The notes below the pieces were generated by a model, which saw nothing but the letters and a program-made list of their open reading frames with translations, was not told the origin of the DNA and made no database searches. Positions 13,300 through 33,878 of a DNA stretch of 64,000 bases are shown in pieces. Source of the DNA: an uncultured Ignavibacteria bacterium (GTDB lineage: Bacteria > Zixibacteria > MSB-5A5 > CAIYYT01). How positions within the stretch are numbered: position 1 is the stretch's first letter; each line of letters starts with the position of its first letter. The stretch covers positions 91,915 through 155,914 of the forward strand of contig CAZNWJ010000001.1 of assembly GCA_964576925.1 (NCBI GenBank). Direction: 5' to 3'. Made by a program: the position numbers and the translations under genes.

Positions 13300-13320
13300 T
13301 TAGCGATAAGGAGTCAGGTT

Positions 13321-13818: not shown

Positions 13819-13854
13819 GGAAGAAAATCCGTCACTTTACTGGAGGAGAACGCT

Positions 13855-18375: not shown

Positions 18376-18911
18376 AGAGTATCCAGACCTTCTCTGCCGG
18401 TGGCGGCTGATTCGCGCACGAGTCGTGCGAGCCGATCGCGCATCTTTCTGCGAGCGCGCGAGAGTCGCATCTTGATAAGTCCTTCGGATTTGCCGAAGAG
18501 GGCTGCCAATTCAGAGACCTTCCACCCTTCGACCTCAGACATGATTACAATCATTCGGTCGTCGGCACTCAGAACGGCCAGAGCCGTCGCAAGCTGGCGA
18601 CGGGCATCATAAACCGGCGCAGGGTCGGAAGTACCGGCGAGTGATTCCAGGTCGGACGCTCCCAGAAGTACCCGCTTCCACCATGGATGGCGTACGCGAT
18701 TGCGATAGGTGTTGTTAATGATGCTGTAGAGCCAGGGGCGAAACGACTCCTCGCTGCGTAAAGCGGAATACCCGTCATGAGCTTTTAAGATAGCATCCTG
18801 GTACAAGTCATCACCCTCATCGGCTGTTCCGGTTAAGCGAACACAATAGTTTCTCGCCCGCACATGTTGAGTCTCGAGCAGCTTCCAGAATTCATTTCTG
18901 ATTACATCCAC
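18372..18911 (-). CDS. RNA polymerase sigma-70 factor, ECF subfamily
   Basis: Region 2 (LYQDAILKAHDGYSALRSEESFRPWLYSIINNTYRNRV) and region 4 (VSELAALFGKSEGLIKMRLSRARRKMRD). Confidence 0.8.
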   Translation of the reverse strand: MDVIRNEFWKLLETQHVRARNYCVRLTGTADEGDDLYQDAILKAHDGYSALRSEESFRPWLYSIINNTYRNRVRHPWWKRVLLGASDLESLAGTSDPAPVYDARRQLATALAVLSADDRMIVIMSEVEGWKVSELAALFGKSEGLIKMRLSRARRKMRDRLARLVRESAATGREGLDTL

Positions 18912-19509: not shown

Positions 19510-19854
19510 TTAACGGTCGCGGCGACCACCGCCGTAACCACCGCGTCCACCGCCACCGCCGCCGGGACGACGATCGCCACCACCACCGCCGCCACCCATG
19601 CGGGGGTTGTTCTCACGCGGGCGCGCTTCGTTCACATTCAGCGTGCGGCCGAGGAATTCCTTGCCGTTCATGCCGGCAATGGCTGCCTGCGCTTCTTCTT
19701 TGGTCGCCATTTCCACGAAGCCAAATCCGCGGGGTTCGCCCGAGAACTTGTCTTTAATGATGGTGGCGCGAGCAACGTTGCCGAAGCTCGAAAAAGCGTT
19801 CTTCAGATCCTCTTCCGTGGCTTGACGTGACAGATTGCCTACGAAGATGTTCAT
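19510..19854 (-). CDS. RRM-type RNA-binding protein with glycine-rich C-terminal tail
   Basis: [27 protein letters not shown]...RGFGFVEMA (RNP-2 and RNP-1 motifs) followed by [27 protein letters not shown]. Confidence 0.85.
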
Positions 19855-20173: not shown

Positions 20174-20983
20174 TCAGCCTTCGATGAGCTTTCGGAATGC
20201 TGCCTGGTCGTGTCCTGCGAGCGCGGTTTTCAAGGATTCCAGGAATTCCTCGACCTCATTCGCAGCTACACCGGCGGATGCAAAGTGATTGGCAGCGTCG
20301 GACGCAAATCCCAGCGGCAGTGCCACGGGCGTTTCATAGCGTGCGTTGTGGGCGATAAGCAGGTCAAGGGTGTCTACGGGACGAAAGACAAACTCCGACC
20401 AGTCAAAGTGAGTCTGCCACTTGAGCGGCAAGAGACGGATCAGGGTCTGCAAGTAGTTATCACTGAGCGCAGAGTTGTTCTCGGCGTAGAGCAGAAGTCG
20501 CTCTCCCGCAAGCATACGCGCCAGAACGGGTAAGTGGGTGTCCGGAGACACTGCCAATAGTCCCGACAGCTCCTTGAATGGGTCGGCCGGACCCTCAATG
20601 CGTAGTTCTCTGGCTTGCGAAAGTTCCTCTGACGAACCTGCACTGACAAGTTGACTAGCGACGAGCGCCAAGTTGCCAAGGATCTCCCGATGTTGAGACT
20701 CAGAGAGTATCGCCGAGTGTCTCAGCATGGCCCCCCATCTTCCCGAGAAATCCCTCCCCAGTTGACTGACCCGGGTGATCGCACAAACCGTCTCCGTTCT
20801 AGTACGATTCCAGAGAACCGTGATTGAAGACTTGAATTCCTCGCTGCGGCAGTCACCGAACTCATCGTAACTGGCAATCAGCCACTGCTCGATGTCGCTG
20901 TCGATTCCGGCTGACTTGTAAACGACTTGCTGTGAACCAGGCAGATCGGGAAAGGTGCCGTAAATCAGGTGGTCGAGGAGCAT
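20174..20983 (-). CDS. Hypothetical protein, terminal gene of T6SS-like locus
   Basis: 269 aa, no TM, no family recognised. Starts 7 nt after the stop of the GTPase-membrane gene. Confidence 0.5.
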   Translation of the reverse strand: MLLDHLIYGTFPDLPGSQQVVYKSAGIDSDIEQWLIASYDEFGDCRSEEFKSSITVLWNRTRTETVCAITRVSQLGRDFSGRWGAMLRHSAILSESQHREILGNLALVASQLVSAGSSEELSQARELRIEGPADPFKELSGLLAVSPDTHLPVLARMLAGERLLLYAENNSALSDNYLQTLIRLLPLKWQTHFDWSEFVFRPVDTLDLLIAHNARYETPVALPLGFASDAANHFASAGVAANEVEEFLESLKTALAGHDQAAFRKLIEG

Positions 20984-20989: not shown

Positions 20990-22882
20990 TCAGAGCTTGG
21001 GCACAGAGGGCGGTTTGGGTACATCCCCGGACTTGTACTTGACGATGATGTTATAGTCGCGGCCGAAATCGAGACGAACACCGCCAGCTTGGATCTTTGG
21101 GTAGAAGGTCTCAATCGGGTTTTCGAAGGCGGGTTGTTCGTACATTGTGACCCCGTCTTTGAGATCCAACCACTTGAAGTGAACGGGGCTATTGCCTTTA
21201 CCCGATATCTTCTGGCTGATGGTAGGTGTGCCGCTGTTGTTAGTGAACTCAGTGTACGGGTTGTCGCCGATTTGTGCGACGATTTGGGCACCGTCGCGAA
21301 TTCCAGATATCGTCAATTCGAGTTCAAACTCCTTTTCGGCCACCTCCGCTCCGCCTGATTTGAACTGATCCTGAGCGGCCTCGACTTTCTTGACAAATGC
21401 AGGATCGAGCGTTTCGGCCGGGTGTTTGGCCCAGAATTCCTGCATCCTGGCTTCGAAAGCCGCTTGCTGCTCAGCCGGCGGTAATTTGGCTACATCGTCG
21501 CTGATCTTCTTAAAGTCTTTGGTGGCAGCGTCAGTGGCTTCCTTGAAGGGGGAATCCTCGGGAACGTCCTCAACCATTGGCGGCGCATCGGCCGACACCT
21601 GGGTTTGGACGAACGCTTGGCGCGCCTTGGCATATTCGATGAGCGGCTTGGCGCCAAAGAACTCCATCACAGGGATATGTCCAAGATAGTTCTTATAGTT
21701 GTCCTTCAGGATATTCGCCTGCTTCTGGTCGATCGGCGTCGGACCGCCGCCAAAAACCTGCTCGAACTTGTCTTCGGCGCGACTCAAAGTCCCGTCATAG
21801 ATAAACACCAGGTGATATAGATTGAAAGCGCTGAAGAGCAGCATCCAGGTGATGCTCAAGCCGATGACCCACTTGGTCATTCGCCACCACACCAACTTGC
21901 GTTTGTTAAAGAGAATCCGATTGAATGACCAAATCAGAGGATCCGGTACGCCGGAAGGCGTGATCTCGCGCGGGGGCTGAACGGCACCGGCCTGAACCTT
22001 CTCCAATCCGCCGGTGGCGGAGACAAAGAAGAACTGGAAGTCGAGATTATAGGAGGTCATCGAATCGATAAGGTTAGCCAGGGTACGTGTAACGCGTTCA
22101 CAGGAGCGCGCCCAGACTTCTCCGAAGCGGCGCTGGTTAACCTCGGCCAATCCCTTGATAAACGCCGCGACGCGCTTGCCCTTGTGCATCGCCGCGTTGG
22201 CCGGGATCAGCTCCACCGGATTGGACGGCGAGAAGCCTTCGAGGAAATCGGCCTTGGTAATCACGATGCCAATCGGGACGCGCCGGGGGGCGCAGTCGCG
22301 CAAGTCGTTGATGATCGTTTGGAAGGCGGCGATTTGTTCACGAAGCAGGACGTCGGTATCGAGCACTGAGGCATCAATAAAGAACAACGCTGCACGGGCG
22401 TAGGGGAAGAAGCGGGCGAACTGCTTGCGCAAGCCGCCCGGTTCGGCGATCGAAAGGGTCTCGCCCTTGTAATCAACCGTATAGAACTTGATGCCCTTGC
22501 GGATATTCATGTCGAGACCGAACTTGAGCACGCGCGTTTCCGAGGTCATGGTCGGGAACTTGCGCTCGCCGTCAACTTCAACCTGACGGCCTTCGCGAAT
22601 CTTGATCTGTTTGCCGCGCATCAGATTGTAGTTCTCGATCAGCGCCGCGGCGGTCTCGTTATCGAGCGGCGAAAGCTTGTAGTCGGGATTGCCTTTCAGC
22701 AATTCGTAGAGCACCGAGAAATAGACAGTCTTGCCGGCATTCGAATGTCCAAAGACCAGGACGACATTGTCGTCGTGCTGAAACGGAATGTCGGCAGCGC
22801 CCTTGGCCGGAGGGGGTGTTGCCGAGGCTTTCTTGAATATGCCGAAGGCTTTCTTAATCAGTCCGATCGGATTCAAGCTCAT
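20990..22882 (-). CDS. Membrane-anchored Ras-like small GTPase domain protein with periplasmic C-terminal domain
   Basis: 630 aa. G1 VLVFGHSNAGKT, G3 DYKG, G4 ITKAD, G5 FVSATGG. Single TM WVIGLSITWMLLFSAFNLYHLVFIY around residue 330. About 280-aa C-terminal domain. Start overlaps the upstream gene stop (ATGA). Confidence 0.6.
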   Translation of the reverse strand: MSLNPIGLIKKAFGIFKKASATPPPAKGAADIPFQHDDNVVLVFGHSNAGKTVYFSVLYELLKGNPDYKLSPLDNETAAALIENYNLMRGKQIKIREGRQVEVDGERKFPTMTSETRVLKFGLDMNIRKGIKFYTVDYKGETLSIAEPGGLRKQFARFFPYARAALFFIDASVLDTDVLLREQIAAFQTIINDLRDCAPRRVPIGIVITKADFLEGFSPSNPVELIPANAAMHKGKRVAAFIKGLAEVNQRRFGEVWARSCERVTRTLANLIDSMTSYNLDFQFFFVSATGGLEKVQAGAVQPPREITPSGVPDPLIWSFNRILFNKRKLVWWRMTKWVIGLSITWMLLFSAFNLYHLVFIYDGTLSRAEDKFEQVFGGGPTPIDQKQANILKDNYKNYLGHIPVMEFFGAKPLIEYAKARQAFVQTQVSADAPPMVEDVPEDSPFKEATDAATKDFKKISDDVAKLPPAEQQAAFEARMQEFWAKHPAETLDPAFVKKVEAAQDQFKSGGAEVAEKEFELELTISGIRDGAQIVAQIGDNPYTEFTNNSGTPTISQKISGKGNSPVHFKWLDLKDGVTMYEQPAFENPIETFYPKIQAGGVRLDFGRDYNIIVKYKSGDVPKPPSVPKL

Positions 22883-23787
22883 CGCGTGCCCTCGTGCTTC
22901 TTCGCCAGAAGTTCAGCGGCTTTGTCGCGATGGACTTTCTCCCAAGGTACCCGGATATTCAAAGCCCCGTAGACAAAGGCTGCGCACAGGACCAAGTAGA
23001 CCAGATACACCGGCCAGCGATTCCGGCAGACGTGCAGGACGAACCGCCAGTTGAACACAGAGAAGATTGTATTGCCCAGCGAGCTGAAAAAGTGCTTCAG
23101 AGCGCGCAGGATCGCAGACTCACCCTTGTAGATCTCGTTGGTGCGAAGGTACCAGGCGGCAAAATCATTATGTTCGGAAATGACGCGCAGTTCATCGGTT
23201 GGCGCAAAGGAACGAATCTCGTCCTTGCGGCCGCGCTGGTTGAGCGCCGCGATGTGCAGCATTTTCTTTTGCCAGGAGTCAGAGCGAACGATGCGCGTTG
23301 CCGAGACATTGATCTGGTCGCTTTCGCGGAAGTTGACGGCGATTTGTGCCGTGCGGTGAAGGATTAATGCGCGAAAGTCCCGATCACGCTTGGCGAAGCC
23401 TCGCAGTTTGCCGCCAAAGACGAGCGGAGCGATCGCTTGTTCGACAAACTGACTGTCGTCGACGATGCCGCGCAGTTTCTTGGCCGCCAGGAATGCATTC
23501 TGACATTGTTGCGGCGGGCGACGAACATACCAAAAGTACAACGCCAGGAGATTGGCAACGACCAAGCTGACGGGCTGCGAATTGCGCGGGATCGTGTTGA
23601 TTCGCTGCTTGAGGTGCTCGTCAACGCTGACACCGCCGTCAGCCGACAGATCGAGTCGATCAAGTTCGGCGAAGAAATTCTCGCAGTCGCGGATAAAGGT
23701 ATCCGCCGAGAAGTCCGTTTGCTGACGCTCGTAACGGTTGAGTTGGACAAAAATGGCGTTGGTAAGAGCTTTGAGTTTTTCCGACAT
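22879..23787 (-). CDS. Tail-anchored membrane protein (possible TssL/DotU analogue)
   Basis: 302 aa with a soluble N-terminal ~255 aa, one C-terminal TM (VYLVYLVLCAAFVYGALNI) and a short tail. Topology like TssL, but no sequence motif confirmed. Confidence 0.45.
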   Translation of the reverse strand: MSEKLKALTNAIFVQLNRYERQQTDFSADTFIRDCENFFAELDRLDLSADGGVSVDEHLKQRINTIPRNSQPVSLVVANLLALYFWYVRRPPQQCQNAFLAAKKLRGIVDDSQFVEQAIAPLVFGGKLRGFAKRDRDFRALILHRTAQIAVNFRESDQINVSATRIVRSDSWQKKMLHIAALNQRGRKDEIRSFAPTDELRVISEHNDFAAWYLRTNEIYKGESAILRALKHFFSSLGNTIFSVFNWRFVLHVCRNRWPVYLVYLVLCAAFVYGALNIRVPWEKVHRDKAAELLAKKHEGTR

Positions 23788-23793: not shown

Positions 23794-25266
23794 TTACCGC
23801 GCCCTCGAAAAGATCGAGACGTGATTCATCTTCACCGCTTCCAATGCGGAGCGATCAACATCTCCGTCAATGATAATATTCAGGCGATCGAGCCGCGAGC
23901 TTTTTAGCGGAAAGTACTCATTGGGCTGAATCAGCCAGAAATCGGGATCGCTGACATCCTCGACCGGTTTGCGGGCGACCGATGCTGCAGCGATGTCGTC
24001 GACCTCATTCGCGCCAAGGTAGATGATAACGTTGGCTGCGTACTGAATCGGCAGAACCTTCTTGTGCAACTTAACAATGACATCCTCGGTGCCGCGGGGA
24101 TCGACGCCGTCAATGACGATATGGTGGCGATTATTGCGGAAAGAATACTTGACCGCACCGTGTTGTTGCAGCAGGAAGCGGAAGCCATCGCGTTCGAGCG
24201 AATCACCTGTACGACCGGCCGCTCCCGACGCATAATAGCTTAAGATGGCGCCGACGAACTCAAGCATTCGTTCCGTGTCATTGAAGAACTGCGTCATCTC
24301 TTCGTACCCGTACGAGCGAGTCTGGTAGTCGCGTAACTCGGGCAGAATATTGCCGCCATTGAGCTCGCCTCGATCAGTCTTAATGTGGGCAGTGCGCACG
24401 TATTCGCGCAATTCCGGGTAGATGAGGAAACTCTGCTGGAAACCGCCGACAAAACCGCCAAAATAATTCATCAGGGCGCGGGCGCTGATTCCGCAATGAT
24501 GGTCGAAGATCTGATTGTAATTGAAGCCGAGGCTGTGGAGGAGATTCTCGGTCTGGAGGAAGACGCCACGAATGGTCTCTTCTTCGGCCGCCGCCGGCCG
24601 GCTCTTCACCTTCATCCTCACTTCGGCGATTGCCGCAACCCCGGCGCGTTGGATATTGTCCAATAGCTTGCGAATGTTAGCCATGCGCGAGGTAACTGCC
24701 TTGCCGCAACTCGTCGTCATGACGCTCGGGACAAACGACTCGTCAAGTCGTACATCGTCGCCCTCACGCACGATTTCAGCCACCTGAAGTCCCGCCGCCG
24801 AACCGACGGAATCGGACGCACCGGCACTTAGAAAGTAGCGGGGTACCTGATAGGGCAGGCGGCTTAAGAGTTCTCCCGGCAGTGGGTCGCCAAAGGCAGT
24901 GCGTTCGGTCGGGGAGGAATACAGAAAAATCGGAATTCTCTCACGCTTTTCCTTGGACAAGTCAAAGCTGAGCTCGACGGCCTTGAACTTGCTGTAAGCT
25001 TCATTGACGTTAACGATCGAGCCATTGGGAAGCAAGGCGGCGCACTTGAGTACCGTCACGCTAACGGTGTTGCCGCTGCGCTGAAGCTTGATCTCCAACG
25101 GTTCACTCTTGCTGCCGGCAGCTTTCACCAACCCGTAGCTGGTCGCGAGTGCGGACGCTGTCGCGCGGCTCAGGTTATAGGTGAAGTCAGCTTCCTGGCT
25201 GAAGTGACGGCTGGTAATCAGCATGCCGTCGACCCAATTAACACCCCAGACGTTTAAATCATCCAT
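23794..25266 (-). CDS. tssK: T6SS baseplate protein TssK-like
   Basis: N-terminus MDDLNVWGVNWVDGMLITSRHFSQ parallels the canonical TssK opening (V.W.EGM.L.PQHFQQ). 490 aa is the typical size. Immediately downstream of tssE-F-G. Confidence 0.6.
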   Translation of the reverse strand: MDDLNVWGVNWVDGMLITSRHFSQEADFTYNLSRATASALATSYGLVKAAGSKSEPLEIKLQRSGNTVSVTVLKCAALLPNGSIVNVNEAYSKFKAVELSFDLSKEKRERIPIFLYSSPTERTAFGDPLPGELLSRLPYQVPRYFLSAGASDSVGSAAGLQVAEIVREGDDVRLDESFVPSVMTTSCGKAVTSRMANIRKLLDNIQRAGVAAIAEVRMKVKSRPAAAEEETIRGVFLQTENLLHSLGFNYNQIFDHHCGISARALMNYFGGFVGGFQQSFLIYPELREYVRTAHIKTDRGELNGGNILPELRDYQTRSYGYEEMTQFFNDTERMLEFVGAILSYYASGAAGRTGDSLERDGFRFLLQQHGAVKYSFRNNRHHIVIDGVDPRGTEDVIVKLHKKVLPIQYAANVIIYLGANEVDDIAAASVARKPVEDVSDPDFWLIQPNEYFPLKSSRLDRLNIIIDGDVDRSALEAVKMNHVSIFSRAR

Positions 25267-25307: not shown

Positions 25308-26240
25308 CTAAAATGTCTCCCGCAAGTATGTTGAGAAACCGAGAAACGCGCTGTGCGAGTCATCGCCTATGACAAATATCGACAAACCGGGTTGAAATCG
25401 AAACCTAAGTTCGGAGCGCAAGTGTGAGGGCCGAAACAGCGTCAGCAAGTTGTTTGTGATCGTGCGCAAGCGCCCTTCGGGAGCAAATGAGGCAATATCG
25501 TCCTCGAAGAGGCCCTCGACGTTGACGCGAAAGGTTGAGAAGTTCTCTTCAAACTCCTGACCGGGAAAGAAGTCGCGTCCCAGCCGACTATTGAGCTTCC
25601 CCAGCCGGGGCCAGAAGTTATCGGGGATCGCTTCGTGCGCTGCGATGTTTTCTTCAACCGTAACGCGCTTGCCAAGGAACGCCGGCAAGACCTGCTCATA
25701 TAAGAGACGACGGCCGAGGAAGTACGGCGCAAAGAACCGCAGCAATAGCAGGTACTTGCGATCCTCCCGCGCCAGAGTCGGCAGGTCGCCCCCCAGGCTT
25801 TCCCAATAAAGCAATTCGGTATCGTTATCGTCGATGCAAAAAAGCATCCGTAGGCGAAGGAGGTAGTGGGCAATCCAATGGCGATAAGTGATCGTATCGA
25901 AGGCGCTCCAGAATTCGAGATAGCGATCCTCCCAGACTCCGGGGTGATGGTCCGATTCTTCCAGTTGCTCAACGAAGAACGACTGTGGAAAGTAGTTCTT
26001 AAAACACGGAAGGTAGGCGAAGACTACGCGCTCATCGCGTCGATCGACCCGAGACGTCACCGTGCGGATCGTCTCAATATCCGAGAAAAACCCGCCGTGG
26101 GCTTCAAGGCTTACGAACCAGAACTCGCTTGGCTCGATGCCCAGGGTATGAAGCAGCAAGCTGAATTCGGAGAGCCGGGTACGCTCGCGAATGCGATGCA
26201 CGGAAGTGATTTGCCCGGTCTTCATTGGCTCGCCGCCCAC
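25308..26240 (-). CDS. tssG: T6SS baseplate protein TssG-like
   Basis: 310 aa. Position and size after tssF, overlapping its 3' end. Weak N-terminal resemblance to TssG. Assignment mainly by synteny. Confidence 0.5.
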   Translation of the reverse strand: MGGEPMKTGQITSVHRIRERTRLSEFSLLLHTLGIEPSEFWFVSLEAHGGFFSDIETIRTVTSRVDRRDERVVFAYLPCFKNYFPQSFFVEQLEESDHHPGVWEDRYLEFWSAFDTITYRHWIAHYLLRLRMLFCIDDNDTELLYWESLGGDLPTLAREDRKYLLLLRFFAPYFLGRRLLYEQVLPAFLGKRVTVEENIAAHEAIPDNFWPRLGKLNSRLGRDFFPGQEFEENFSTFRVNVEGLFEDDIASFAPEGRLRTITNNLLTLFRPSHLRSELRFRFQPGLSIFVIGDDSHSAFLGFSTYLRETF

Positions 26241-27997
26241 TGCGCGTTCAGGTGGAGATTGAGTGGCGTGTAGCTGTCCAGGTATTGGCTAAGGCGCTGC
26301 AAGAGATACGTCTGCTCTTCTGCGGTTACCTTAGCATCGGCTCTGAGGGCGACTTCGACCGTTACGGAAGGCAAGAGCCCTCCGACCGATCGGATCACGC
26401 TACGCCTGGCTCTGGCGGTTGCGATGCGGCTGTCAAAGCTCCTCGCGAGGTACTCGATCTCGCCTTCGGAAAGGGCGACGCCATGATTACGCAGGAAGAA
26501 GCCGGTCATACGCCTGACTTCTTCATCCGACTTGGCATCCGAGCCGCCGGACGAACTGACGAGATTTCGGGGCGAGTGCAATTGCGGATGATCGCGGGTC
26601 AGTTTCAGCGGGGTGTCTGCCCCAATGCCGTTGCCGTCGGCTCCCTCGGTCAATGAATATTGGACGACTACGAAGTCGGGCGGCTCCTTCCCTGTGCTCT
26701 CGAAGTTAATCGCGACCTTGACTTCACCTTCTTCCTCGAGAATGTGGTACTTGTAGAGATTGGTGAACGACGTCAGGTCCAAGTGGTTCACATACTCCTG
26801 GTCCCTCGAGTCCCAGACCCGATCGATCGAAAACAATTTGCGTGTCGGATCTTCTTTCTGATCCTGATACTCAAAGAGATTCACTTCGAGAGCCGGCTGT
26901 CCCATCGTGTACTTGTTCAGATGAGACCGTCGCCGATTGATGAGAAGCAGCGTATTGGTGTCAAAGTGAATAAAGCGCCGGAGATCGCCGACTTTCTCAT
27001 CGCGTGCCAGGTCAATCCGCAGCCATATTCTTGGCGAAGCCAACTTGGAAAAATCGAGGTGCGCGAATTTGGTTTTGACAGGATCTGGAATCGGCGTTTT
27101 CACCGCACTGGCGAGGGCAGTTCCGGGAATGACGGCAAAGTTCTTGGCTGGTGCCAGGTAGTGTTTGAAATGCCAATGAAGCTTCCCGGAAGTCAGAAAA
27201 TCGCTGCTGTAGAGCCGACTTTGGAAATTGGTCTCGACTTCCAACTCACGGATATCCAGATGCTTGAAGATCTCGAGGCGATGTTGGTATTCACCTGGTT
27301 TGAAAGGCGCCGCCTGCCCATCTCCGACTACGCGCCAGTCAACCCAATTCAGCATCCGTGAGGAATCGGCGTCTGGTCCGAGATATAGCGGCAGATCGTC
27401 GATTTCTGTGAGAGGCAGCCCGGATTGGATTCCGATCCAAATCGTCCCTCCCAGCGGCGGCGGAGCGTTGCGTTTCATCGTACGATATGCAGGCGAATCG
27501 AGCGACTCTTCCCATTTGTCCGCTTCCGGGGCCAATACCTTCAACACACGAAAGTACTCGCCGGAGGTAAACAGCACGAGATCGGCGTGTACATCGAGGA
27601 TTTCCTGGGCGTAAAGCGGGAAGAAAGTATATTCGCGGGGGAAAGCTCCCCCCAGCGTACAAGCAAATTCAACATCGGTGTCGATTCGCGCCCGTTTGTC
27701 GGTGCAACGACAAGAGAGCATCGTAAAGGCGGGAACCGGGCGTCGAATGCCAGTGACGAAGAAGTTGCCGATCAGTGCGTCGATTACGTCCTGACCGGCC
27801 CGCTTGAGTTTGTCCTCCGTGCTGGTGCTGTGGAAGGCGAACGCCTTGAGCATCAGCAGCAGGGCCGGATCCATCTGCTTTTCGCCGGAAGGCACCTGAT
27901 AGCCCCAGAACTTGAGGCGATCGATCATTTCCTGATAAGCGCGCTCTTCGCGGTCGGTCCATTTTTCGGCCACGGTGCTTCCTCTCAAATCTCCCAC
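26222..27997 (-). CDS. tssF: T6SS baseplate protein TssF-like
   Basis: 591 aa. N-terminal LLLMLKAFAFHSTSTEDKL...LIGNFFVTGIRRPVPAFTMLS parallels the TssF LLEGFAFL...YLRPIPSM region. Overlaps tssE by 13 nt. Confidence 0.6.
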   Translation of the reverse strand: MGDLRGSTVAEKWTDREERAYQEMIDRLKFWGYQVPSGEKQMDPALLLMLKAFAFHSTSTEDKLKRAGQDVIDALIGNFFVTGIRRPVPAFTMLSCRCTDKRARIDTDVEFACTLGGAFPREYTFFPLYAQEILDVHADLVLFTSGEYFRVLKVLAPEADKWEESLDSPAYRTMKRNAPPPLGGTIWIGIQSGLPLTEIDDLPLYLGPDADSSRMLNWVDWRVVGDGQAAPFKPGEYQHRLEIFKHLDIRELEVETNFQSRLYSSDFLTSGKLHWHFKHYLAPAKNFAVIPGTALASAVKTPIPDPVKTKFAHLDFSKLASPRIWLRIDLARDEKVGDLRRFIHFDTNTLLLINRRRSHLNKYTMGQPALEVNLFEYQDQKEDPTRKLFSIDRVWDSRDQEYVNHLDLTSFTNLYKYHILEEEGEVKVAINFESTGKEPPDFVVVQYSLTEGADGNGIGADTPLKLTRDHPQLHSPRNLVSSSGGSDAKSDEEVRRMTGFFLRNHGVALSEGEIEYLARSFDSRIATARARRSVIRSVGGLLPSVTVEVALRADAKVTAEEQTYLLQRLSQYLDSYTPLNLHLNAQWAASQ

Positions 27998-28329
27998 GAC
28001 AAGTCAAATCGCTGATTACCGGGGCCGGTACCCGAAACCCGGCACACAAATGTGGCGGTCGGCGAAGAGACGTTATCGGAGATCGCTACGTTAACAACGA
28101 GGCCGAGATAGCGCCTAAACTGCGCCAGGACATGATTGCGCACCTCGACCTTTAAGTCATCATGATGTTCGGGGGTGAATAAAGAGGACCGACAGCCAAA
28201 TTCCGGATCGGGTCGATAGCTTCCCAATTCAGTTTCAAGCAAAAAACGCGCAAACTCGGCCACACCTCCGGTGCGGACGAAGCGCGTCTCCCTTAGTTCG
28301 ACTGGAGTTCGAATTGCCTCATTGGCCAT
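27985..28329 (-). CDS. tssE: T6SS baseplate TssE-like (gp25/GPW lysozyme-like)
   Basis: 114 aa, gp25-like size. Sits between vgrG and tssF as in many T6SS loci. Sequence resemblance modest. Confidence 0.55.
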   Translation of the reverse strand: MANEAIRTPVELRETRFVRTGGVAEFARFLLETELGSYRPDPEFGCRSSLFTPEHHDDLKVEVRNHVLAQFRRYLGLVVNVAISDNVSSPTATFVCRVSGTGPGNQRFDLSWEI

Positions 28330-28332
28330 GTG

Positions 28333-30195
28333 TTAGTTTAGTGCAATGGGCTTGCCCGATACTGTTACAGGTCCTTTGCCGGTGACGCCCACCATGGCGC
28401 CCTCGGCGTTGAATTGGCCATTGGCCTTCATGTTCATGTTGCCTTTAGCAGTGGCATCGACGCTCATGCCGTCAATCGTAATGCCCTGCGATGCTTTGAG
28501 CGTCGCATTTCCCGAGCTCGACTCAATGGAGACATCGTTTGTCGCCTTAACGGTGAAAGCCTTGCCGGCCTCCATGCTGATATTTTCCTTCGCCTTGAGC
28601 ACGATATCCTTATCGGCCATTATCGTAATTGTATTCTGACTGGAATCGATGACGATCGTGTTGGTGCCGGTTTTGTCGATAATCTCGATCTTCTCTTCTC
28701 CGGACTTCTCGCGGAAAATGATCTGGTGCCCACAACGCGTGTAGATCACCTTGTTGTCGTTATCAGGCGTGTAAATCCCAGTCGGCGGCAAGTCCTGTCC
28801 GTTCCACATTGAACCGATAACGACCGGCTGAGTGGGATCGCCATTCTCAAAAATCACGAGCACTTGATCGTCGATTTCAGGGATGAAATAGAAGCCGCGC
28901 TCTCGTCCGGCGTAAGGGGAAACGAAAGGCAGCCAGTGCGATTCCAGGGCGTTGCCGTCATTGTCAAGCAAAGGGAACTGCACCTTTATCCGCCCACGCG
29001 ATTCGGGATCCTCGATGTTAGTCACAAGGGCTGGCATCGGGTCGGCCCGCCTGACCCGCGATTCTGATGCCACGCGGCTGGGTACGGCCGCTTCGAGCGG
29101 CAGTACTTCGAGCTCGTTGTAATAACCGACGTTTCCTTCGATACGGTGCGTGACGCCGGTTACGAAATAGACGCCATTATATGCAGTGCCGGCTTCTTCC
29201 AGCTTGACCGTATCGCCAACCTTAATGCTCGGGACATTAGACTGGATAGTGCCTTCCAGAAGCCCGCTGACCGCTTCTTGGCCAAGCGATTGTGCCAACA
29301 ATTTCACTTCGTTGTGGTGGAAACCCGAATCGGCAGCAGAGTTTGACGTTAGTGAAGATAGATCTCGGGAACCGGCAAAGGCCCGCTGGGCCAGCCCGGA
29401 GAATGATGTTGACGAACTTTGTTGTCCAACAAAGACCTGCTTCTGCGCGTGGTCCCAACCGCGAACGGTGTGGTTGATTTGCTGTGCATTCAAACTAATG
29501 TTGATACTGCCAACACTCTTCCCCCAAACCAACGTTTTCTGATTCCGGGTAGCGGCGGTGGCAATCTGCAGCTTCTTACCGTCATAGTATAGCCAACTAC
29601 TGGTTACGCTGGCCAGCATCACCAGGAAATCCCAATCGGTTTCCTGCCATTGGATCATATACTCCGGCGCATACCCTGCATCACCGCTGAACGTCACGCC
29701 CGCTTTTTCTATACTGTATTCTCCCACGATCCGATCAACAACATCGCTACGGGACATATTCAAGAACGTGCGGAATTTTCTGACAAAGTCCATCTTGATG
29801 GTCGGGCTCTTGGCCTCGACAGTGACGGTGGCCAGAGTGTCACCGCGACTACTGATATGAAGATTGGTGACCAAGCCGGCGAATTCCAGCGGCGACTCTG
29901 AGATGGCGTAGTCTTCGGTCGGCTTGATGGCAACGTTAATCGACTTGCCGATCAAACCGTGATAGGAGTTCGTGGCATCCAACTGCGTCTTGAAGTCCGG
30001 TGACGTCAGGTCGGCTGTCAAGCTGACCTTGAGCACGTGATGCTCGAACGCTTCTTGCCTAAGTTCGAGCGAACTCACGACCCACGAGACCGGCGAACCA
30101 TCGATCTTGACTTCGACTGCAGCCGTAATTCGGGAAAGTGGTCCCTCATCTTCGCGTTCGTCATCTTCCGGAATATCTGCTTCGTGCAATGCCAT
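28333..30195 (-). CDS. vgrG: VgrG-like spike protein (gp27/gp5 fusion) with C-terminal beta-helical repeats
   Basis: QWQETDWDFLVMLAS (gpD-like motif). gp5 OB-fold signature IPEIDDQVLVIFENGDPTQPVVIGSMWNG. C-terminal repetitive TIVIDSSQNTITIMADKDIVLKAKENISMEAGKAFTVKATNDVSIE... beta-helix. No recognisable toxin domain. Confidence 0.8.
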   Translation of the reverse strand: MALHEADIPEDDEREDEGPLSRITAAVEVKIDGSPVSWVVSSLELRQEAFEHHVLKVSLTADLTSPDFKTQLDATNSYHGLIGKSINVAIKPTEDYAISESPLEFAGLVTNLHISSRGDTLATVTVEAKSPTIKMDFVRKFRTFLNMSRSDVVDRIVGEYSIEKAGVTFSGDAGYAPEYMIQWQETDWDFLVMLASVTSSWLYYDGKKLQIATAATRNQKTLVWGKSVGSINISLNAQQINHTVRGWDHAQKQVFVGQQSSSTSFSGLAQRAFAGSRDLSSLTSNSAADSGFHHNEVKLLAQSLGQEAVSGLLEGTIQSNVPSIKVGDTVKLEEAGTAYNGVYFVTGVTHRIEGNVGYYNELEVLPLEAAVPSRVASESRVRRADPMPALVTNIEDPESRGRIKVQFPLLDNDGNALESHWLPFVSPYAGRERGFYFIPEIDDQVLVIFENGDPTQPVVIGSMWNGQDLPPTGIYTPDNDNKVIYTRCGHQIIFREKSGEEKIEIIDKTGTNTIVIDSSQNTITIMADKDIVLKAKENISMEAGKAFTVKATNDVSIESSSGNATLKASQGITIDGMSVDATAKGNMNMKANGQFNAEGAMVGVTGKGPVTVSGKPIALN

Positions 30196-30284
30196 CGTCG
30201 CCTCGTCTGCTACTCTACCTTAAGGAAGCGGGAAGGGAGAACTTCTCTCGCCTTCCCGCAGTGTCCCAACTATCGTCGGTGGGC

Positions 30285-30698
30285 TTATTTGCCCTTCCAG
30301 TCCTTCTTGTACTCGGTGCCGTTGAGGTCCACCAGCTCCGCCGAGATTTCGAAGTACTCGTACATCTGCTCGTTCGGAGCCGATGCGGTCGAGGGAACGT
30401 GCTCTTCATAGTGGGTGATGAAACCGTTCTCCCACTTCAGAACCTTTAGATCCTTCTTGAGGTTCGGATCCTTAAAGGTGATCTGGCCGGCTTTGCGGTT
30501 GACCTGGGACGAATCGAACGCCCACTTGGCGATACCGACGTTTTCGTCCGATTCCCGGCTGATCTTGATCTTCAGACCGGTCGGCACCGAACTCGGCTTG
30601 CCGTCCGCGAGATCGTGGGGGGTGAAGAGTTCATAGCTCACCGAGTGAACCTTGTCGAACTTTTCGCCATCGACCAGCAGTTCTACTTCCTGTGCCAT
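30285..30698 (-). CDS. hcp: Hcp-like inner tube protein
   Basis: 137 aa, strong SD (GCAGGAGGAAATGAACAATG). Position between tssC and vgrG. C-terminal ...YKKDWKG recalls the Hcp C-terminal Trp. Shorter than canonical Hcp (~160 aa). Confidence 0.5.
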   Translation of the reverse strand: MAQEVELLVDGEKFDKVHSVSYELFTPHDLADGKPSSVPTGLKIKISRESDENVGIAKWAFDSSQVNRKAGQITFKDPNLKKDLKVLKWENGFITHYEEHVPSTASAPNEQMYEYFEISAELVDLNGTEYKKDWKGK

Positions 30699-30807
30699 TG
30701 TTCATTTCCTCCTGCGGAATGTTACGTTTATCTCTGACTTTCGTTCTTACTTACGAACCTTACTAACTTCATCCCAACTGTCGCCGGATTCGATTGAAGG
30801 TTCGGAA

Positions 30808-32208
30808 TTATTTCACGGCCGTCTGGCCGGAGTCGTCCACCATGGCCTCCAGCTTCACGACGTACTGCTTGATCGGCGTTTTGGTATTCAAGGCGACTTC
30901 CAGCAACATCTGCTGGTTTTCGATCATCTCGTTCGTCGCGATCACGTTGCAGGTGAAGCCGTTAATGACCTTATTGCGCTGTAACAGGCTCAGGAACTTG
31001 TTCAGGTCCCCGTCGATCGACTTCTTCAGCTTGTCGTCGAAGCCCTTGTAAACCTGTTGATTGAGGTAATTACGCATGGTCTTGTAGATGTAGTCGTAAG
31101 TCCGCTTGATCGTGTAGTTGCGGAACTTGGCGTCCTTGGACAGCGTGTCCGCGCCCATGGCCACGACATCACCAACATCGCCCTGCCAATTGAGCACGCA
31201 GTTGATGCCCTTCTCGTTGAGCTTCGTGTTCTTGGCTTCGTTGAGCTTGATCCGGGTGCTTTGCACGCCGCCCAATTTGCCATTGACCTTGCCTGCCGAG
31301 GGCGCCTGGATGCCAATATCGTTGTCGTTCTTATAGATCAATCCGGCCACCAGGGATGACGGCGGAATCCAGAGCGGATCCTTGTCAAAGCGGCTTTCAG
31401 GCTTGTCGGCTTTGACGTAGTTGCCGAAGACCGAGATATATGCCTTGTACTCGTCGTTGGAGCGCAACGAATCGTAAGACGGATCGTCGAGTTCCTCAGA
31501 CAGCTCTTCGTAGCTGTTGAAGTGCTTGAAATCGGTGAGCACGTGGAGCTTGCTCGGCATCCCCATGTCGCGAGCGACGGTGTCGATATCCTTGACGCTT
31601 CCAAGATAGCCGGGAATGCAGCAGAGCGAGTAGCAGTTCGTGATGTCATAGAGGCCGTAGATGTCGTGCACCTGCCGATTGACATACTCGAACTTCTCGC
31701 GGTCATTCGGATCAGTAAGGTCGGCGATTCCGACATTCGCGAAATAAGCGTAAATCTCGGAATCGGGCCGCGCCATCGCGTTCTGGAAGAACAAATCGAT
31801 GCCGCGATACGCAACCTCGATCGGGCGCACCGTATCGTGGATGCTTTTCATGTTCTCGCCGAGGTTCTTGTCAGCCTCAGCGATCATGTTGTCGAGTTTG
31901 TCCTTGAATTCGTCGGACGTGACGTCTCCGGCCGAGATTAATTCCGACCAAACAGAGAGCCGCTGCCTGAGCTGCTTGCGGCGGTCCTTGAATTCATCCG
32001 AAGACAAGAACTTATTGAATGATTCATTCTTGGGATCCAGGAACTTGGCGCCTTCAACGTAGACGCCGTCCTGGCTGGTGAAGTGAGACAAGTGATCCTT
32101 GATCACCTCGTAGCCGACAAAACCGGCACCGAGGATATCTTTGAGATCAGTTTTCTCTTTGACTTTTACTTCAGCCTGTTGCTGTGGGTCTTTTTCCTGA
32201 TCAGCCAT
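30808..32208 (-). CDS. tssC: T6SS contractile sheath large subunit TssC-like
   Basis: 466 aa immediately after the tssB-like gene (18-nt gap). Size and placement typical of TssC/VipB. Confidence 0.65.
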   Translation of the reverse strand: MADQEKDPQQQAEVKVKEKTDLKDILGAGFVGYEVIKDHLSHFTSQDGVYVEGAKFLDPKNESFNKFLSSDEFKDRRKQLRQRLSVWSELISAGDVTSDEFKDKLDNMIAEADKNLGENMKSIHDTVRPIEVAYRGIDLFFQNAMARPDSEIYAYFANVGIADLTDPNDREKFEYVNRQVHDIYGLYDITNCYSLCCIPGYLGSVKDIDTVARDMGMPSKLHVLTDFKHFNSYEELSEELDDPSYDSLRSNDEYKAYISVFGNYVKADKPESRFDKDPLWIPPSSLVAGLIYKNDNDIGIQAPSAGKVNGKLGGVQSTRIKLNEAKNTKLNEKGINCVLNWQGDVGDVVAMGADTLSKDAKFRNYTIKRTYDYIYKTMRNYLNQQVYKGFDDKLKKSIDGDLNKFLSLLQRNKVINGFTCNVIATNEMIENQQMLLEVALNTKTPIKQYVVKLEAMVDDSGQTAVK

Positions 32209-32226
32209 GATTACCTCTTCCCCGGT

Positions 32227-32682
32227 TTACAGTTTCTCGATATAGGACTTAATGACATTCAAGAACTCTTCTTTCTTGGCCGGATTTGACAATTCCTTTT
32301 TCAGCTTGGAATTGGGCTTGTCCAGCAGGTTCTTGAAGTTGCGCAGGATTTCGACCTCGTTGTACTTTTCCCAGAGGTATTGGTTCTTCTTGATGATTTC
32401 CATCGAACCGAAATCCTTCATTGAATTGAACTCCAGCTCGACCGACTCTTCGGACCCGTCCTGCTTATTGATCGTGACTTCCTGGGTCGGCCGAAACGTT
32501 GCGAACACTTCTTTGAGGTTTTTGCAGCGGGTCAACTCGGGTTCGGTCTCTTCGCGCGAGTTCAGCTTGGTCAGATAGACCATTTTGTTCGACGGCAAGA
32601 GATCGACGGGAATCGAATCGCTTTTCTCCTTGTACTCGGTGGTACCGATGTGGGGGGCGGCAATTCGGAACTGGTCTGCCAT
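32227..32682 (-). CDS. tssB: T6SS contractile sheath small subunit TssB-like
   Basis: 151 aa. NLKEVFATFRPTQEVTINKQDGSEESVELEFNSMKDFGSMEIIKK parallels the VipA/TssB segment (..DEVFEH..P...L.V..DGS..V.L.F.SMDDF.P). Confidence 0.65.
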   Translation of the reverse strand: MADQFRIAAPHIGTTEYKEKSDSIPVDLLPSNKMVYLTKLNSREETEPELTRCKNLKEVFATFRPTQEVTINKQDGSEESVELEFNSMKDFGSMEIIKKNQYLWEKYNEVEILRNFKNLLDKPNSKLKKELSNPAKKEEFLNVIKSYIEKL

Positions 32683-32703
32683 GGTATCCTCCTGATAGTA
32701 TCT

Positions 32704-33837
32704 CTATAACTTGACGATTTCAAAGTTGTCGCCATTAAGGCGGACTTCGACGCGCGAGCCTTCCGGGAAGCGCCCGTCGATGATGCCGATGGAAAGCGGG
32801 TTGAGAATTTCCTTTTCGATAACCCGCTGCAGCGGCCGCGCGCCCATTTCAAAGTTGTAACCGCGTTCGGCCAGGGCCTTCATAGCTTCCGCCGTACACG
32901 AGATCGTCATCTTTTGATCTTTGAGGATCTTGTTGATGACTTTGAGCTGAATATTGACGATGGCGTTGATGCCTTTCTCCGTTAGCGGCCGGAAGATGAT
33001 CCATTCCAGGCGGTTGAGAAACTCCGGCCGGAACTTCGCTTTCAGAATCTTCATCATCTCGTCGCGATCGACCGGCTGGTTCTCGCGATAGCAATCCAGG
33101 ATGTAGTGCGAACCGAAATTGGAAGTCAGGATCACGATCGTATTCGTAAAATCGATGGTATTGCCCTGACCGTCGGTCAAGCGACCGTCGTCCAGTAGTT
33201 GCAGCATGATGTTGAAGACATCGGCATCGGCCTTTTCGACTTCGTCGAAGAGCACGACGGAATAGGGATTGCGTTTGACTTTCTCGGTCAACAAACCGCC
33301 CGCTTCATAGCCGACATACCCAGGTGGAGCACCAATCAGCTTGGCAACGGAGTGTTTCTCCATGTACTCTGACATATCGAAGCGGATCATGTTCTTTTCG
33401 TCGTTGAAAAGAAACTCGGCAAGAGTTTTGGCCAATTCCGTCTTACCTGTGCCCGTAGACCCCAGGAACAGGAAGGAGCCGATCGGCCGGTTGTGCCGCT
33501 TGATGCCGGAACGGGAACGGCGCACGGCTTCGCAGATCGTCTTAATCGCGTCCTCCTGGTCGATAACTCGTTTGCCGAGGTGATCTTCCAGGTTGAGAAG
33601 TTTAGCTTTTTCATCCTCCATCATGCGCGACACCGGGATCTTGGTCCAGCGGGAGATGACGTAGGCGACATCTTCCGTGCCAAGAGTCTGTTTCTCAGCG
33701 GTCACGAACTTTTCCAAACGATCGATCTTTTCGAGGTTTTCGCGAAATCGCGTGATCTGGCTCTTGTCTTCGCTCATTCTGCTTTCCGTTAATACCGCTT
33801 GGCGGTCTCGCAAACTGTCCGTGTTTTGGATCGACAT
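32704..33837 (-). CDS. ClpV/ClpB-family AAA+ ATPase, C-terminal fragment (M-domain remainder + D2)
   Basis: D2 Walker A GSTGTGKTELAK, sensor/arginine region, ...VISRWTKIPVSRMMEDEKAKLLNLEDHLGKRVIDQEDAI. Lacks Clp_N and D1, which are encoded by the adjacent upstream ORF in a different frame. Confidence 0.8.
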   Translation of the reverse strand: MSIQNTDSLRDRQAVLTESRMSEDKSQITRFRENLEKIDRLEKFVTAEKQTLGTEDVAYVISRWTKIPVSRMMEDEKAKLLNLEDHLGKRVIDQEDAIKTICEAVRRSRSGIKRHNRPIGSFLFLGSTGTGKTELAKTLAEFLFNDEKNMIRFDMSEYMEKHSVAKLIGAPPGYVGYEAGGLLTEKVKRNPYSVVLFDEVEKADADVFNIMLQLLDDGRLTDGQGNTIDFTNTIVILTSNFGSHYILDCYRENQPVDRDEMMKILKAKFRPEFLNRLEWIIFRPLTEKGINAIVNIQLKVINKILKDQKMTISCTAEAMKALAERGYNFEMGARPLQRVIEKEILNPLSIGIIDGRFPEGSRVEVRLNGDNFEIVKL

Positions 33838-33878
33838 GGTAGCCGACCCGATTTTTACACTCTACTCAAACCCAAGGT

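Follow-up and report, generated by a model that had tools for sequence, protein, structure and literature searches.

A TssK-linked, membrane-anchored DO-GTPase-family protein in T6SSiii-like loci of Zixibacteria and allied FCB phyla

The operon and its membrane proteins

The window, that is, the whole stretch of 64,000 nucleotides that was analysed, carries an operon that is T6SSiii-like as judged from its profile matches. All of its genes lie on the minus strand, in the order Ser/Thr kinase (STK), ClpV (two ORFs), TssB, TssC, TssD, VgrG, TssE-like, TssF-like, TssG, TssK, p302, GTPase and p269, with the following features:

35507..36541 (-), Ser/Thr protein kinase at the operon head (Pkinase 1.8e-20), a possible regulator
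25308..35294 (-), remaining T6SS core, recognised by Pfam and NCBIfam matches and made up of the nine genes that follow
33879-35294 (-), ClpV N+D1
32704-33837 (-), ClpV D2
32227-32682 (-), TssB
30808-32208 (-), TssC, matching PF17541
30285-30698 (-), TssD, matching PF17642
28333-30195 (-), VgrG
27985-28329 (-), TssE-like protein, so called from its position and from profile matches in related loci
26222-27997 (-), TssF-like protein
25308-26240 (-), TssG
23794..25266 (-), TssK-like baseplate protein (TIGR03353 1e-9, PF05936 1e-4, both below cut-offs)
22879..23787 (-), p302, a 302-aa all-alpha C-tail-anchored protein, ATGA-coupled to the downstream GTPase
20990..22882 (-), 630-aa membrane-anchored DO-GTPase-family protein, an ATG-started ORF
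21923..22771 (-), its cytoplasmic G domain, residues ~38-320
21797..21868 (-), its single transmembrane (TM) helix, residues ~339-362, placed by hydropathy and flanking charges
20993..21796 (-), its predicted periplasmic part, residues 363-630 (268 aa), a helical domain and then a beta-sandwich in the AF2 model
20174..20983 (-), p269, a 269-aa soluble GAP1-N2 protein (short-form GTPase-associated protein 1)

Of the proteins encoded in this operon, TM segments were found in p302 and the GTPase only. None of the large ORFs of the window bears a Pfam signature of TssJ/L/M or TssN-R, no fn3-repeat protein or classical effector gene was found among those scanned, and the PADLOC defence models gave no match. 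NCBIfam likewise returned no match for the GTPase, p302 or p269. Homologs of the STK occur near many related loci.

The 630-aa protein combines a G domain, one TM helix and a periplasmic part, an architecture that an earlier note on this DNA had proposed together with four GTPase motifs. All four motifs lie where they were claimed, namely G1 GHSNAGKT (residues 45-52), G3 DYKG (137-140, followed by E), G4 TKAD (209-212, then FLEGF) and G5 SAT (288-290, followed by G), and they are accompanied by a candidate switch-I residue, T77, and by the family signature PP..P.GV..P..W. Across 76 family members, with a G-domain median identity of 31%, these motifs are invariant or nearly so, and the (near-)invariant residues are G45, K51, T77, D137, Y138, G140, K210, D212, T290 and G291, with T290 kept in 73 of the 76. 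Judged from this alignment, the conservation of the nucleotide-binding residues is far above chance. The invariance of G1, G3, G4 and G5 against a median identity of 14% in the fast-evolving periplasmic part is read as purifying selection. The residue after DxxG is variable, being E in the window protein (DYKGE) and K in 36, E in 22 and D/R in 8 of the 76 members, so that hydrolysis may be slow or partner-dependent.

Hydropathy, flank charges and the AF2 model agree on the topology that had been proposed. The N-terminal flank of the TM helix is K/R-rich (NKRKLVWWRMTKW) and the C-terminal flank is acidic, which by the positive-inside rule indicates an N-in/C-out orientation with the G domain in the cytoplasm. 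No hydrophobic segment was found by hydropathy before residue 339. In the AF2 model (pLDDT 79.4), the G domain spans residues 39-290 and a long helix, residues 313-377, contains the TM helix, while the C-terminal half consists of a helical domain (386-516) and a beta-sandwich (518-619).

The ATGA overlap with the gene of the preceding tail-anchored protein is also real (..CGATGAGC..). The lone TM helix of p302, at residues 258-277 of 302 (nt 22957-23016), identifies this protein as tail-anchored. No Pfam family matched the p302 family consistently at E<=1; the matches were scattered and single, with no Tss family among them, and no similarity of p302 to TssL was found. In many loci, a TssM periplasmic HMM matched p302 at residues ~35-90 (E 0.01-10). 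A TssM-periplasmic-like assignment was rejected and the matches are treated as chance, since hhalign gave 1%, the topology does not fit and the matches are not independent of one another.

Family membership, partner protein and distribution

Profile comparisons place the 630-aa protein in the DO-GTPase family (Pfam PF19993/PF19975). Its G domain aligns with 44 generic DO-GTPases of ~300 aa over 228 columns (hhalign 100%, E 1.4e-42), and the alignment covers their C-terminal FFVSxTG..PP..P.GV..P..W signature. Moreover, DO-GTPase2 (PF19993) matches 19/19 family members scanned, the window protein itself scoring 25.1 bits, just below the cut-off of 27, and its relatives 28.9-39.8. The earlier designation as a Ras-like small GTPase holds for the G-domain fold and for the TRAFAC-type motifs G1, G3, G4 ([NT]KxD) and G5, all of which are present. 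It does not hold for membership in the Ras, Arf, Rab or MglA families, as the Ras, Arf and Roc Pfam families gave no match at E<=1 in the 19 members scanned. Gtr1_RagA matched 12 of these members weakly, and no non-GTPase Pfam family was matched consistently. A PDB sequence search with the GTPase family profile returned an HflX fragment only (E=1).

Like SR-beta and Sar/Arf, the protein is membrane-located, and like Rag and MglA it has a dedicated non-canonical regulator partner. It differs from Rag/Gtr1, Arf/Sar/SR-beta and MglA in sequence-family membership, in the fusion to its own TM helix and periplasmic domain, in the absence of a catalytic Gln after DxxG, and in its insertions at residues 90-115 and 220-280 and its PP..P.GV..P..W tail.

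DO-GTPase/GAP1-N2 pairs were described as "GTPase-centric" systems by Kaur, Iyer, Burroughs and Aravind (2020, eLife; PMC7159879). According to that work, some GAP1-N2-type GTPases have a C-terminal TM with beta-sandwich or other domains beyond it on the extracytoplasmic side, a C-terminal TM is also known from GAP1 proteins, and DO-GTPase/GAP1 pairs are read as threshold-setting switches tied to sensing; T6SS, IcmF and TagF are not mentioned. The present locus shares with these systems the GTPase family across the whole domain, a downstream GAP1-N2 gene and a membrane-proximal organisation. Unlike them, the pair sits inside a T6SS operon, directly after TssK and co-inherited with it, and has an additional invariant partner in the tail-anchored p302. 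There is one GTPase and no paralogous pair, zinc ribbons are absent, and no FNIII-repeat partner or tubulin, HSP70 or PP2C theme is seen here. In addition, GAP1 has been shortened to ~270 aa in the window's clade and lost altogether from the largest one, and the DO-GTPase Walker-B glutamate (hhhhDxxGE) is only partly conserved in the T6SS-linked family.

The gene that follows the GTPase after a spacer of 6 nt encodes p269, the cognate partner of the GTPase family, which had gone unrecognised in the earlier note. GAP1-N2 (PF20013) matches 24/24 p269 homologs (best E 1.6e-6), and p269 of the window scores 22.9 bits, just below the cut-off of 24. Two distant T6SS loci, L083 and L100, encode GAP1 proteins of 964-979 aa in the position of p269; the full-length GAP1 of L083 reaches 38.8 bits (cut-off 24), and the p269 profile matches the N-terminus of these proteins at E 1e-23 to 1e-25. 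GAP1-N2 is absent from the largest (sister) clade, which accounts for 64 of the 82 loci and has a small exported protein after the GTPase instead. A GAP1-controlled switch is therefore not universal. DENN matched 3 of the 24 p269 members, too weakly for use, and a PDB sequence search with the p269 profile gave no match. An identity of p269 with TagF, in which GTPase-GAP1 would parallel TssM-TagF, was rejected (hhalign against four TagF sequences, 0.2%).

Relatives of the GTPase are encoded in 135 species-level genomes of Zixibacteria, Calditrichota, Krumholzibacteriota, Latescibacterota and other non-Bacteroidota FCB bacteria. Within the window and ±10 kb around related loci, p302 lies immediately upstream of the GTPase in 78/82 loci. 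The order TssK/p302/GTPase is found in 74/82, spanning at least four phylum-level labels and reaching down to ~22% overall identity, and where the flank allows, the locus runs TssB-C-D-VgrG-(E)-F-G-K. The same T6SS context is kept at 28-32% identity (L001, L002) and in the second-tier relatives P0056, P0058 and P0069. The great majority of the homologs belong to T6SS loci and follow TssK directly, in line with the setting proposed for the window protein. In three loci (L038, L066, L070) that encode the GTPase, the flanking 10 kb contain no T6SS core genes. Loci of other clades have additional exported, OMP-like or TPR proteins in their neighbourhood.

Relation to TssJLM and TssNQOPR

Only two T6SS membrane complexes have been described, TssJLM and TssNQOPR. 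The latter is the membrane complex of Bacteroidota T6SSiii and includes no nucleotide-binding protein (Bongiovanni et al. 2024), and T6SSiii is confined to Bacteroidota in the current reviews and literature. The operon analysed here resembles T6SSiii with TssNQOPR in its core type (TssC PF17541, TssD PF17642) and in encoding non-TssJLM membrane proteins beside TssK; in TssNQOPR, the component closest to the baseplate genes is thought to join the membrane complex and the baseplate. Compared by their described architectures, TssN (five TM helices and a ubiquitin-like domain), the helical TssO/Q, TssP (an N-terminal TM and PKD domains) and TssR are all unlike the GTPase or p302. The earlier note knew of no such component in described T6SS subtypes, and neither the 2026 T6SS accessory-factor review nor the 2024 Bacteroidota membrane-complex paper mentions a GTPase component. 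The literature searched contained nothing relevant, either on GTPases as T6SS components or on T6SSs of Zixibacteria and related phyla. The T6SS-linked GTPase module, of which no description was found in the searchable literature, looks undescribed.

Several traits recall TssM (IcmF), which together with TssL (DotU), a protein with a cytoplasmic helical domain and a C-terminal TM, makes up the inner-membrane core of the T6SSi membrane complex. Both TssM and the 630-aa protein bear Walker A, hhhhDxxG and TKxD-L-x-GF in an NTPase domain, the two domains being distantly similar; a TM helix comes next, and the periplasmic region is first helical and then beta. As with TssM/TssL, the 630-aa protein is encoded after tssK and adjoins a C-tail-anchored protein. 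Unlike TssM, it is about half the size and lacks the N-terminal TM1-TM2 hairpin as well as the IcmF-related and IcmF_C periplasmic domains. The arrangement also departs from TssJLM in that the partner p302 resembles TssL neither in sequence nor in fold and that no TssJ signature was found in the window.

Possible role of the GTPase module and competing explanations

The best reading of these observations is that the GTPase module stands in for TssL/TssM, a function that we infer, in an apparatus of Zixibacteria and allied FCB phyla that have no TssJLM and no TssNQOPR in the vicinity of the locus. With modest confidence, the 630-aa protein is probably a T6SS-dedicated inner-membrane DO-GTPase that makes up, with p302, the module by which a T6SSiii-like apparatus sits in the cytoplasmic membrane, joined by GAP1-N2 in the window's clade. 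In such a module, the G domain and the p302 helical domain beneath the membrane would provide a docking site for the TssK baseplate, and the TM helices with the helical/beta-sandwich periplasmic domain would fasten the machine to the cell envelope. The switch that permits baseplates to dock, sheaths to assemble or the apparatus to fire would be the nucleotide state of the G domain, which GAP1-N2 would help to set as a GAP, GEF or effector.

A broader proposal is possible, if on balance doubtful: p302 and the TM-anchored DO-GTPase (with GAP1-N2 where present) would make up a third class of T6SS membrane complex, regulated by GTP and serving a T6SSiii-like lineage outside Bacteroidota, the long-enigmatic TssM/IcmF NTPase would also belong to the DO-GTPase superfamily, and the proteobacterial and FCB anchors would both derive from one ancestral GTPase-TM-periplasmic protein. 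The module may be a third way of equipping a T6SS with a membrane complex, beyond TssJLM and TssNQOPR, in which a T6SSiii-type core outside Bacteroidota is paired with a distinct nucleotide-switch membrane module. The locus family bears on the question, left open by Bongiovanni et al. (2024), of which membrane complex is ancestral or whether they were acquired independently. A shared ancestor, if true, would favour an ancestral TssM-like anchor that was later replaced by TssNQOPR in Bacteroidota. Additionally, the poorly understood NTPase domain of TssM would gain a related GTPase family with a dedicated partner, GAP1, and this link between TssM and DO-GTPases suggests testable ideas on nucleotide-gated assembly.

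The resemblance to TssM could alternatively mean that the GTPase is a highly diverged, trimmed true TssM ortholog and p302 a diverged TssL, both descended, without new recruitment, from the ancestral membrane complex that also gave rise to proteobacterial TssLM, which we regard as quite improbable. The G domain aligns with a 9-sequence TssM NTPase profile over 84 columns (hhalign 88%, E 3e-6), pairing Walker B, the next strand, and IPIGIVITKADFLEGF with lPVYVvlTKlDLlxGF, and a greedy full-length alignment (72%, E 3.3e-5) also pairs Walker A, FFVSATG with VYFTSxxQxG, and the ensuing TM helix. PF14331 matches 14/19 members weakly (best 0.003), and a TssM-NTPase HMM ranks the GTPase family above all other P-loop proteins in 7,325 ORFs. 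The genes for TssK, the tail-anchored protein and the NTPase-TM protein are arranged like tssK-tssL-tssM, and the NTPase, TM, helical and beta parts of the protein follow one another as they do in TssM. However, generic, non-T6SS-type DO-GTPases match the TssM NTPase equally well or better (hhalign 96.6%, E 5.6e-10), so that this similarity, common to all DO-GTPases, is no evidence of orthology to TssM, and the window protein is vastly nearer to DO-GTPases (E 1e-42). The independent recruitment suggested in the earlier note is not secure, as the Walker B-to-G4 core does align with the TssM/IcmF NTPase, a similarity that DO-GTPases show generally. Orthology is further opposed by the missing N-terminal TM hairpin, by the TagF-GAP1 similarity that was not found (0.2%), and by the periplasmic part. 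PF06761 (IcmF-related) and PF06744 (IcmF_C) gave no match at E<=1 in 19/19 members, and hhalign between the periplasmic parts of the 630-aa protein and TssM gave 0.4%, that is, no similarity. An identity with the TssM periplasmic domain was thus rejected, and the C-terminus did not match it in these sequence comparisons, as the idea of a novel part had implied. TssM is not among the PDB fold matches listed.

Another explanation, rather unlikely in our view, is that the GTPase is a sensor or regulator and not a structural anchor, its periplasmic domain sensing envelope stress, attack or cell contact, with the trans-envelope complex encoded elsewhere. The GTPase and GAP1-N2, perhaps with the Ser/Thr kinase of the operon, would then convey a post-translational on/off signal for T6SS assembly, in analogy to the TagQRST-PpkA-Fha-TagF pathway of T6SSi. 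Such a role is consistent with the view of DO-GTPase/GAP1 pairs as sensing-coupled threshold switches (Kaur et al.; PMC7159879), with a highly variable periplasmic part beside a conserved G domain, and with the kinase near many loci. One TM helix with ~270 aa in the periplasm seems small for a trans-envelope channel, and the exported, OMP-like or TPR proteins near the loci of other clades could do structural work. However, the position of the GTPase directly after TssK is invariant and its presence is conserved like that of baseplate genes (78/82 with p302), which is unusual for accessory regulators, typically patchy, and the window operon offers no other membrane protein. A chance placement of an unrelated DO-GTPase/GAP1 conflict (immunity) system beside the T6SS operon is hardly credible and already disfavoured. 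In its favour, Kaur et al. (2020; PMC7159879) describe DO-GTPase/GAP1-N2 pairs as conflict systems that stand alone, and three loci have no T6SS genes nearby. Against it, the GTPase gene is translationally coupled inside the operon, and the TssK-p302-GTPase order persists across the phylum-level labels and identities given above. The lack of a PADLOC match, and of the FNIII-repeat/effector genes typical of GAP1-N2 systems in the window, argues in the same direction.

If the GTPase is instead the T6SS-dedicated membrane component favoured here, the T6SS itself would be the linked "output" of the module. DO-GTPase/GAP1 pairs have so far been only predicted immune "switches", and the controlled output would in this case be a concrete molecular machine. 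The nearest non-T6SS relative with readable neighbours (P0095) has no T6SS gene nearby and adjoins an FGE-sulfatase-domain gene, this domain being among the effectors that Kaur et al. list for DO-GTPase systems (PMC7159879).

The GTPase in its T6SS operon

Between 36541 and 20174 every gene is encoded on the minus strand. The T6SS operon begins with a Ser/Thr kinase, ClpV as two ORFs, TssB, TssC and TssD, and continues with VgrG, a TssE-sized ORF, a TssF-like protein, TssG, TssK, a 302-aa protein, the GTPase and a 269-aa protein.

35507-36541 (-): Ser/Thr protein kinase, first gene of the T6SS operon
32704-35294 (-): ClpV/TssH in two ORFs that differ in frame, with 41 nt between them
20990-22882 (-): ORF of the 630-aa GTPase

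The TssC of the window matches PF17541 (E 4e-47) and its TssD matches PF17642 (E 1.6e-20), while the NCBIfam T6SSi model of TssC gives only E 0.0047. Since the matched models are non-canonical and the T6SSi match is poor, the core is termed T6SSiii-like. Among the large ORFs scanned in the 64-kb window, none matched the TssJ, TssL, TssM or TssN-R families, and the 302-aa protein and the GTPase are the sole membrane proteins of the operon. The nearest public homologs belong to Zixibacteria MAGs. The first ClpV ORF (471 aa) carries Clp_N, AAA D1 and the lid, and the second (377 aa) AAA_2 D2 and D2-small; this arrangement may reflect a natural split, a frameshift or an error of assembly.

The motifs and the single TM helix read by the earlier note are present: GHSNAGKT at residues 45-52, DYKG at 137-140, TKAD at 209-212, SAT at 288-290, and one hydrophobic helix at about 339-362. 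Because this helix is flanked by K/R-rich sequence on its N-side and acidic sequence on its C-side, the G domain is predicted to be cytoplasmic and residues 363-630 periplasmic. In an AlphaFold2 model built with 19 homologs as input (pLDDT 79.4), the G domain (39-290) is followed by a very long helix (313-377) with the TM segment inside, a helical domain (386-516) and a beta-sandwich (518-619). The ATGA overlap also holds, the GTPase start codon sharing bases with the stop codon that ends the 302-aa ORF upstream, and the 269-aa ORF begins 6 nt past the GTPase stop. The 302-aa protein has an all-alpha model (pLDDT 82.7), and the position of its one TM segment, at residues 258-277, marks it as tail-anchored.

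Family of the G domain and its GAP1 partner

The description of the G domain as Ras-like stood at the level of fold, where the best Foldseek match was SR-beta (E 2e-6), but not at that of sequence family. Membership in the Ras, Arf, Rab or MglA families was rejected, and all 19 family members match Pfam DO-GTPase2 instead (DO-GTPase1 in 16/19). Several window-protein Pfam scores fall slightly under curated thresholds, for instance 25.1 bits against a DO-GTPase2 cut-off of 27 (relatives 28.9-39.8), and the assignment is based on profile-profile results and consistency over homologs. Compared with 44 generic DO-GTPases of about 300 aa, the G domain aligned over 228 columns at 100% probability (E 1.4e-42), including the distinctive tail FFVSxTG...PP..P.GV..P..W.

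Kaur et al. 2020 (PMC7159879) introduced the DO-GTPases as a new family of TRAFAC GTPases whose genes invariably have a gene for GTPase-associated protein 1 (GAP1) downstream. Systems of the GAP1-N2 type are membrane-proximal, and in some of them the GTPase has a TM near its C-terminus and beta-sandwich domains after it. The window resembles these systems in having a GAP1-N2 protein, of 269 aa, downstream of the GTPase. GAP1-N2 matches 24/24 tested homologs of this protein (best E 1.6e-6); the window copy scores 22.9 bits (cut-off 24).

Across 76 family members compared with the window protein, the G domain has a median identity of 31%. Invariant or nearly invariant are G45, K51 and T/S52 of the P-loop, T77 (a candidate switch-I threonine), D137, Y138, G140, T/S209, K210, D212, S/T288, T290 and G291, which argues that nucleotide binding is maintained, probably with guanine specificity through TKxD. 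The residue after DxxG varies (K in 36, E in 22), so the family-defining Walker-B glutamate is only partly kept. The periplasmic part is fast-evolving, with only 14% identity.

Association with T6SS loci

When all of 1.84 billion representative proteins were searched by HMM, 365 relatives emerged at E<=1e-3, of which 55 reached E<=1e-30. With one genome scanned for each GTDB species, relatives turned up in 135 genomes. The top 80 loci come from Zixibacteria (part labelled Ignavibacteria), Calditrichota, Krumholzibacteriota, Latescibacterota and unclassified FCB bacteria. Many "uncultured Ignavibacteria" MAG loci (L003-L010, L016, L018) are 59-98% identical to Zixibacteria-titled loci, and the taxonomic labels of these records are probably unreliable.

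The GTPase is tied to T6SS. When every ORF of 82 loci (+-10 kb of each) was searched with profiles, a homolog of the 302-aa protein lay directly upstream of the GTPase in 78, with TssK before it in 74, and where the flank permits the order is TssB-C-D-VgrG-(E)-F-G-K. Homologs of just 28-32% identity retain this order. Even three second-tier relatives of 820-840 aa (P0056, P0058, P0069), whose match is restricted to G domain and TM, sit in T6SS loci, after homologs of TssK and of the 302-aa protein (E 1e-33 to 1e-38 for P0056 and P0058), and their genes are followed by a 282-aa protein or a 964-979-aa GAP1-N2 protein. Within the family, three loci (L038, L066 and L070) depart from this pattern; otherwise only more distant relatives occur outside T6SS contexts, such as P0095, which has an FGE-sulfatase-domain gene and no T6SS gene among its neighbours.

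Neighbouring genes differ among loci:

L001 12191-12760, and 51 other loci (e.g. L020-L082): conserved protein of about 175-200 aa after the GTPase
L083 12570-15464 and L100 12504-15443: 964-979-aa GAP1 of distant T6SS loci
L066 (Zixibacteria bin38 chromosome CP070742.1) 5834-13849: GTPase homolog, no T6SS core within 10 kb

The protein found in these 52 loci belongs to the largest clade, that of GTPases of about 735 aa; it is small and exported, carries a signal or TM segment at its N-terminus and matches no Pfam family. The opposite strand beyond it encodes, in this clade, a propeller-like protein, an OMP-like protein of about 377 aa and a TPR lipoprotein, possible outer-envelope parts. The GAP1-N2 gene is missing from this clade (loci read at +-10 kb), which counts against a universal GAP1-driven switch. 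In L083 and L100, the GTPase's partner is a membrane protein itself, with a GAP1-N2 N-terminus, a TM helix at about 321-348 and an extracytoplasmic region of about 620 aa; the 269-aa profile matches its N-terminal ~220 aa (E 1e-23 to 1e-25). Neighbours of the L066 homolog are a PEGA-OMP, two PD40 beta-propeller proteins and a PAAR protein, and L038 (CP070766.1) holds an orphan GTPase copy beside competence and DUF4388 genes.

Relation to TssM and possible role of the module

Against a TssM alignment of nine sequences from Proteobacteria and Campylobacter, the G-domain profile matched the NTPase profile at 88% probability (E 3e-6), through Walker B, the next strand and then IPIGIVITKADFLEGF versus lPVYVvlTKlDLlxGF. 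Greedy full-length alignment (72%, E 3.3e-5) added Walker A, FFVSATG/VYFTSxxQxG and the TM helix past the NTPase. Pfam IcmF-related_N matched 14/19 members weakly, and a TssM-NTPase HMM placed the GTPase family above all other P-loop proteins in the 7,325 ORFs taken from loci and window, matches that are not independent because they are mutually related. Generic DO-GTPases (P0102-P0178) match the TssM/IcmF NTPase at least as well (hhalign 96.6%, E 5.6e-10; Walker B to TKxD-L-x-G), and the two NTPase cores are probably homologous at superfamily level, a link not found in Kaur et al. (PMC7159879).

A diverged TssLM would account for these matches and for the striking parallel in gene order (tssK, tail-anchored protein, NTPase-TM) and domain order, which may also be convergent. 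This reading is unlikely: the generic DO-GTPases match TssM no worse, the window GTPase lacks TssM's N-terminal TM hairpin, its C-terminus does not resemble the TssM periplasmic domain, a possibility that the earlier note had allowed (hhalign 0.4%; no PF06761 or PF06744 match), and the 302-aa protein has no TssL similarity by sequence or among best fold matches. Judged by sequence, the protein is a DO-GTPase and not a recognisable TssM ortholog. The 269-aa protein was also considered as TagF and rejected, having no TagF similarity. A TssM periplasmic-region HMM (positions 239-290) weakly matched (E 0.01-10) many 302-aa homologs of the ~735-aa clade in their cytoplasmic domain (residues ~35-90, e.g. 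L046 9032-9961), probably by chance since hhalign gives just 1%.

We lean, with slightly better than even confidence, towards an inner-membrane docking module. The 302-aa protein and the GTPase would form this module, onto which the TssK baseplate would dock; the periplasmic helical and beta-sandwich domains would fasten it to the envelope, and a nucleotide switch in the G domain, which GAP1-N2 would modulate in loci that encode it, would license docking, assembly or firing. As the main rival, which we rate as a minority possibility yet above a diverged TssLM, the module would serve purely for trans-membrane sensing or regulation, and the genes of the structural complex would lie elsewhere. 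The DO-GTPase and its GAP1 partner would suit such a role; the place of the 302-aa protein and the GTPase after TssK, as the only membrane proteins of the operon, counts against it. A conflict system beside the T6SS by chance is highly improbable given the retained gene order.

The GTPase family with its GAP1 partner (2020) and the T6SS core type are already known. No description of the GTPase module combined with T6SS was found in open-access papers or bioRxiv, an absence that is not proof; the paper defining the Bacteroidota membrane complex does not mention such a module in T6SS, and a review of T6SS accessory factors from August 2026, recognising four T6SS classes and confining T6SSiii to Bacteroidota, nowhere contains the word "GTPase". 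Should the membrane complex turn out to be this module, the significance would be considerably greater.

Kinase homologs occur just downstream of the GTPase, on the opposite strand, in at least 16 related loci, which, together with the operon kinase, is a hint of control through threonine phosphorylation comparable to PpkA of T6SSi. The DNA directly downstream of the operon, at 16849-18911 (-) and 19510-19854 (-), encodes an RRM RNA-binding protein whose tail is rich in Gly and Arg, an ECF sigma factor, a putative anti-sigma protein and an exported Ig-like protein (DUF1573). On the other side, some 3 kb upstream of the operon, lies a transposase fragment:

39288-39860 (-): IS200-like Y1 transposase fragment (PF01797, E 2.5e-6)
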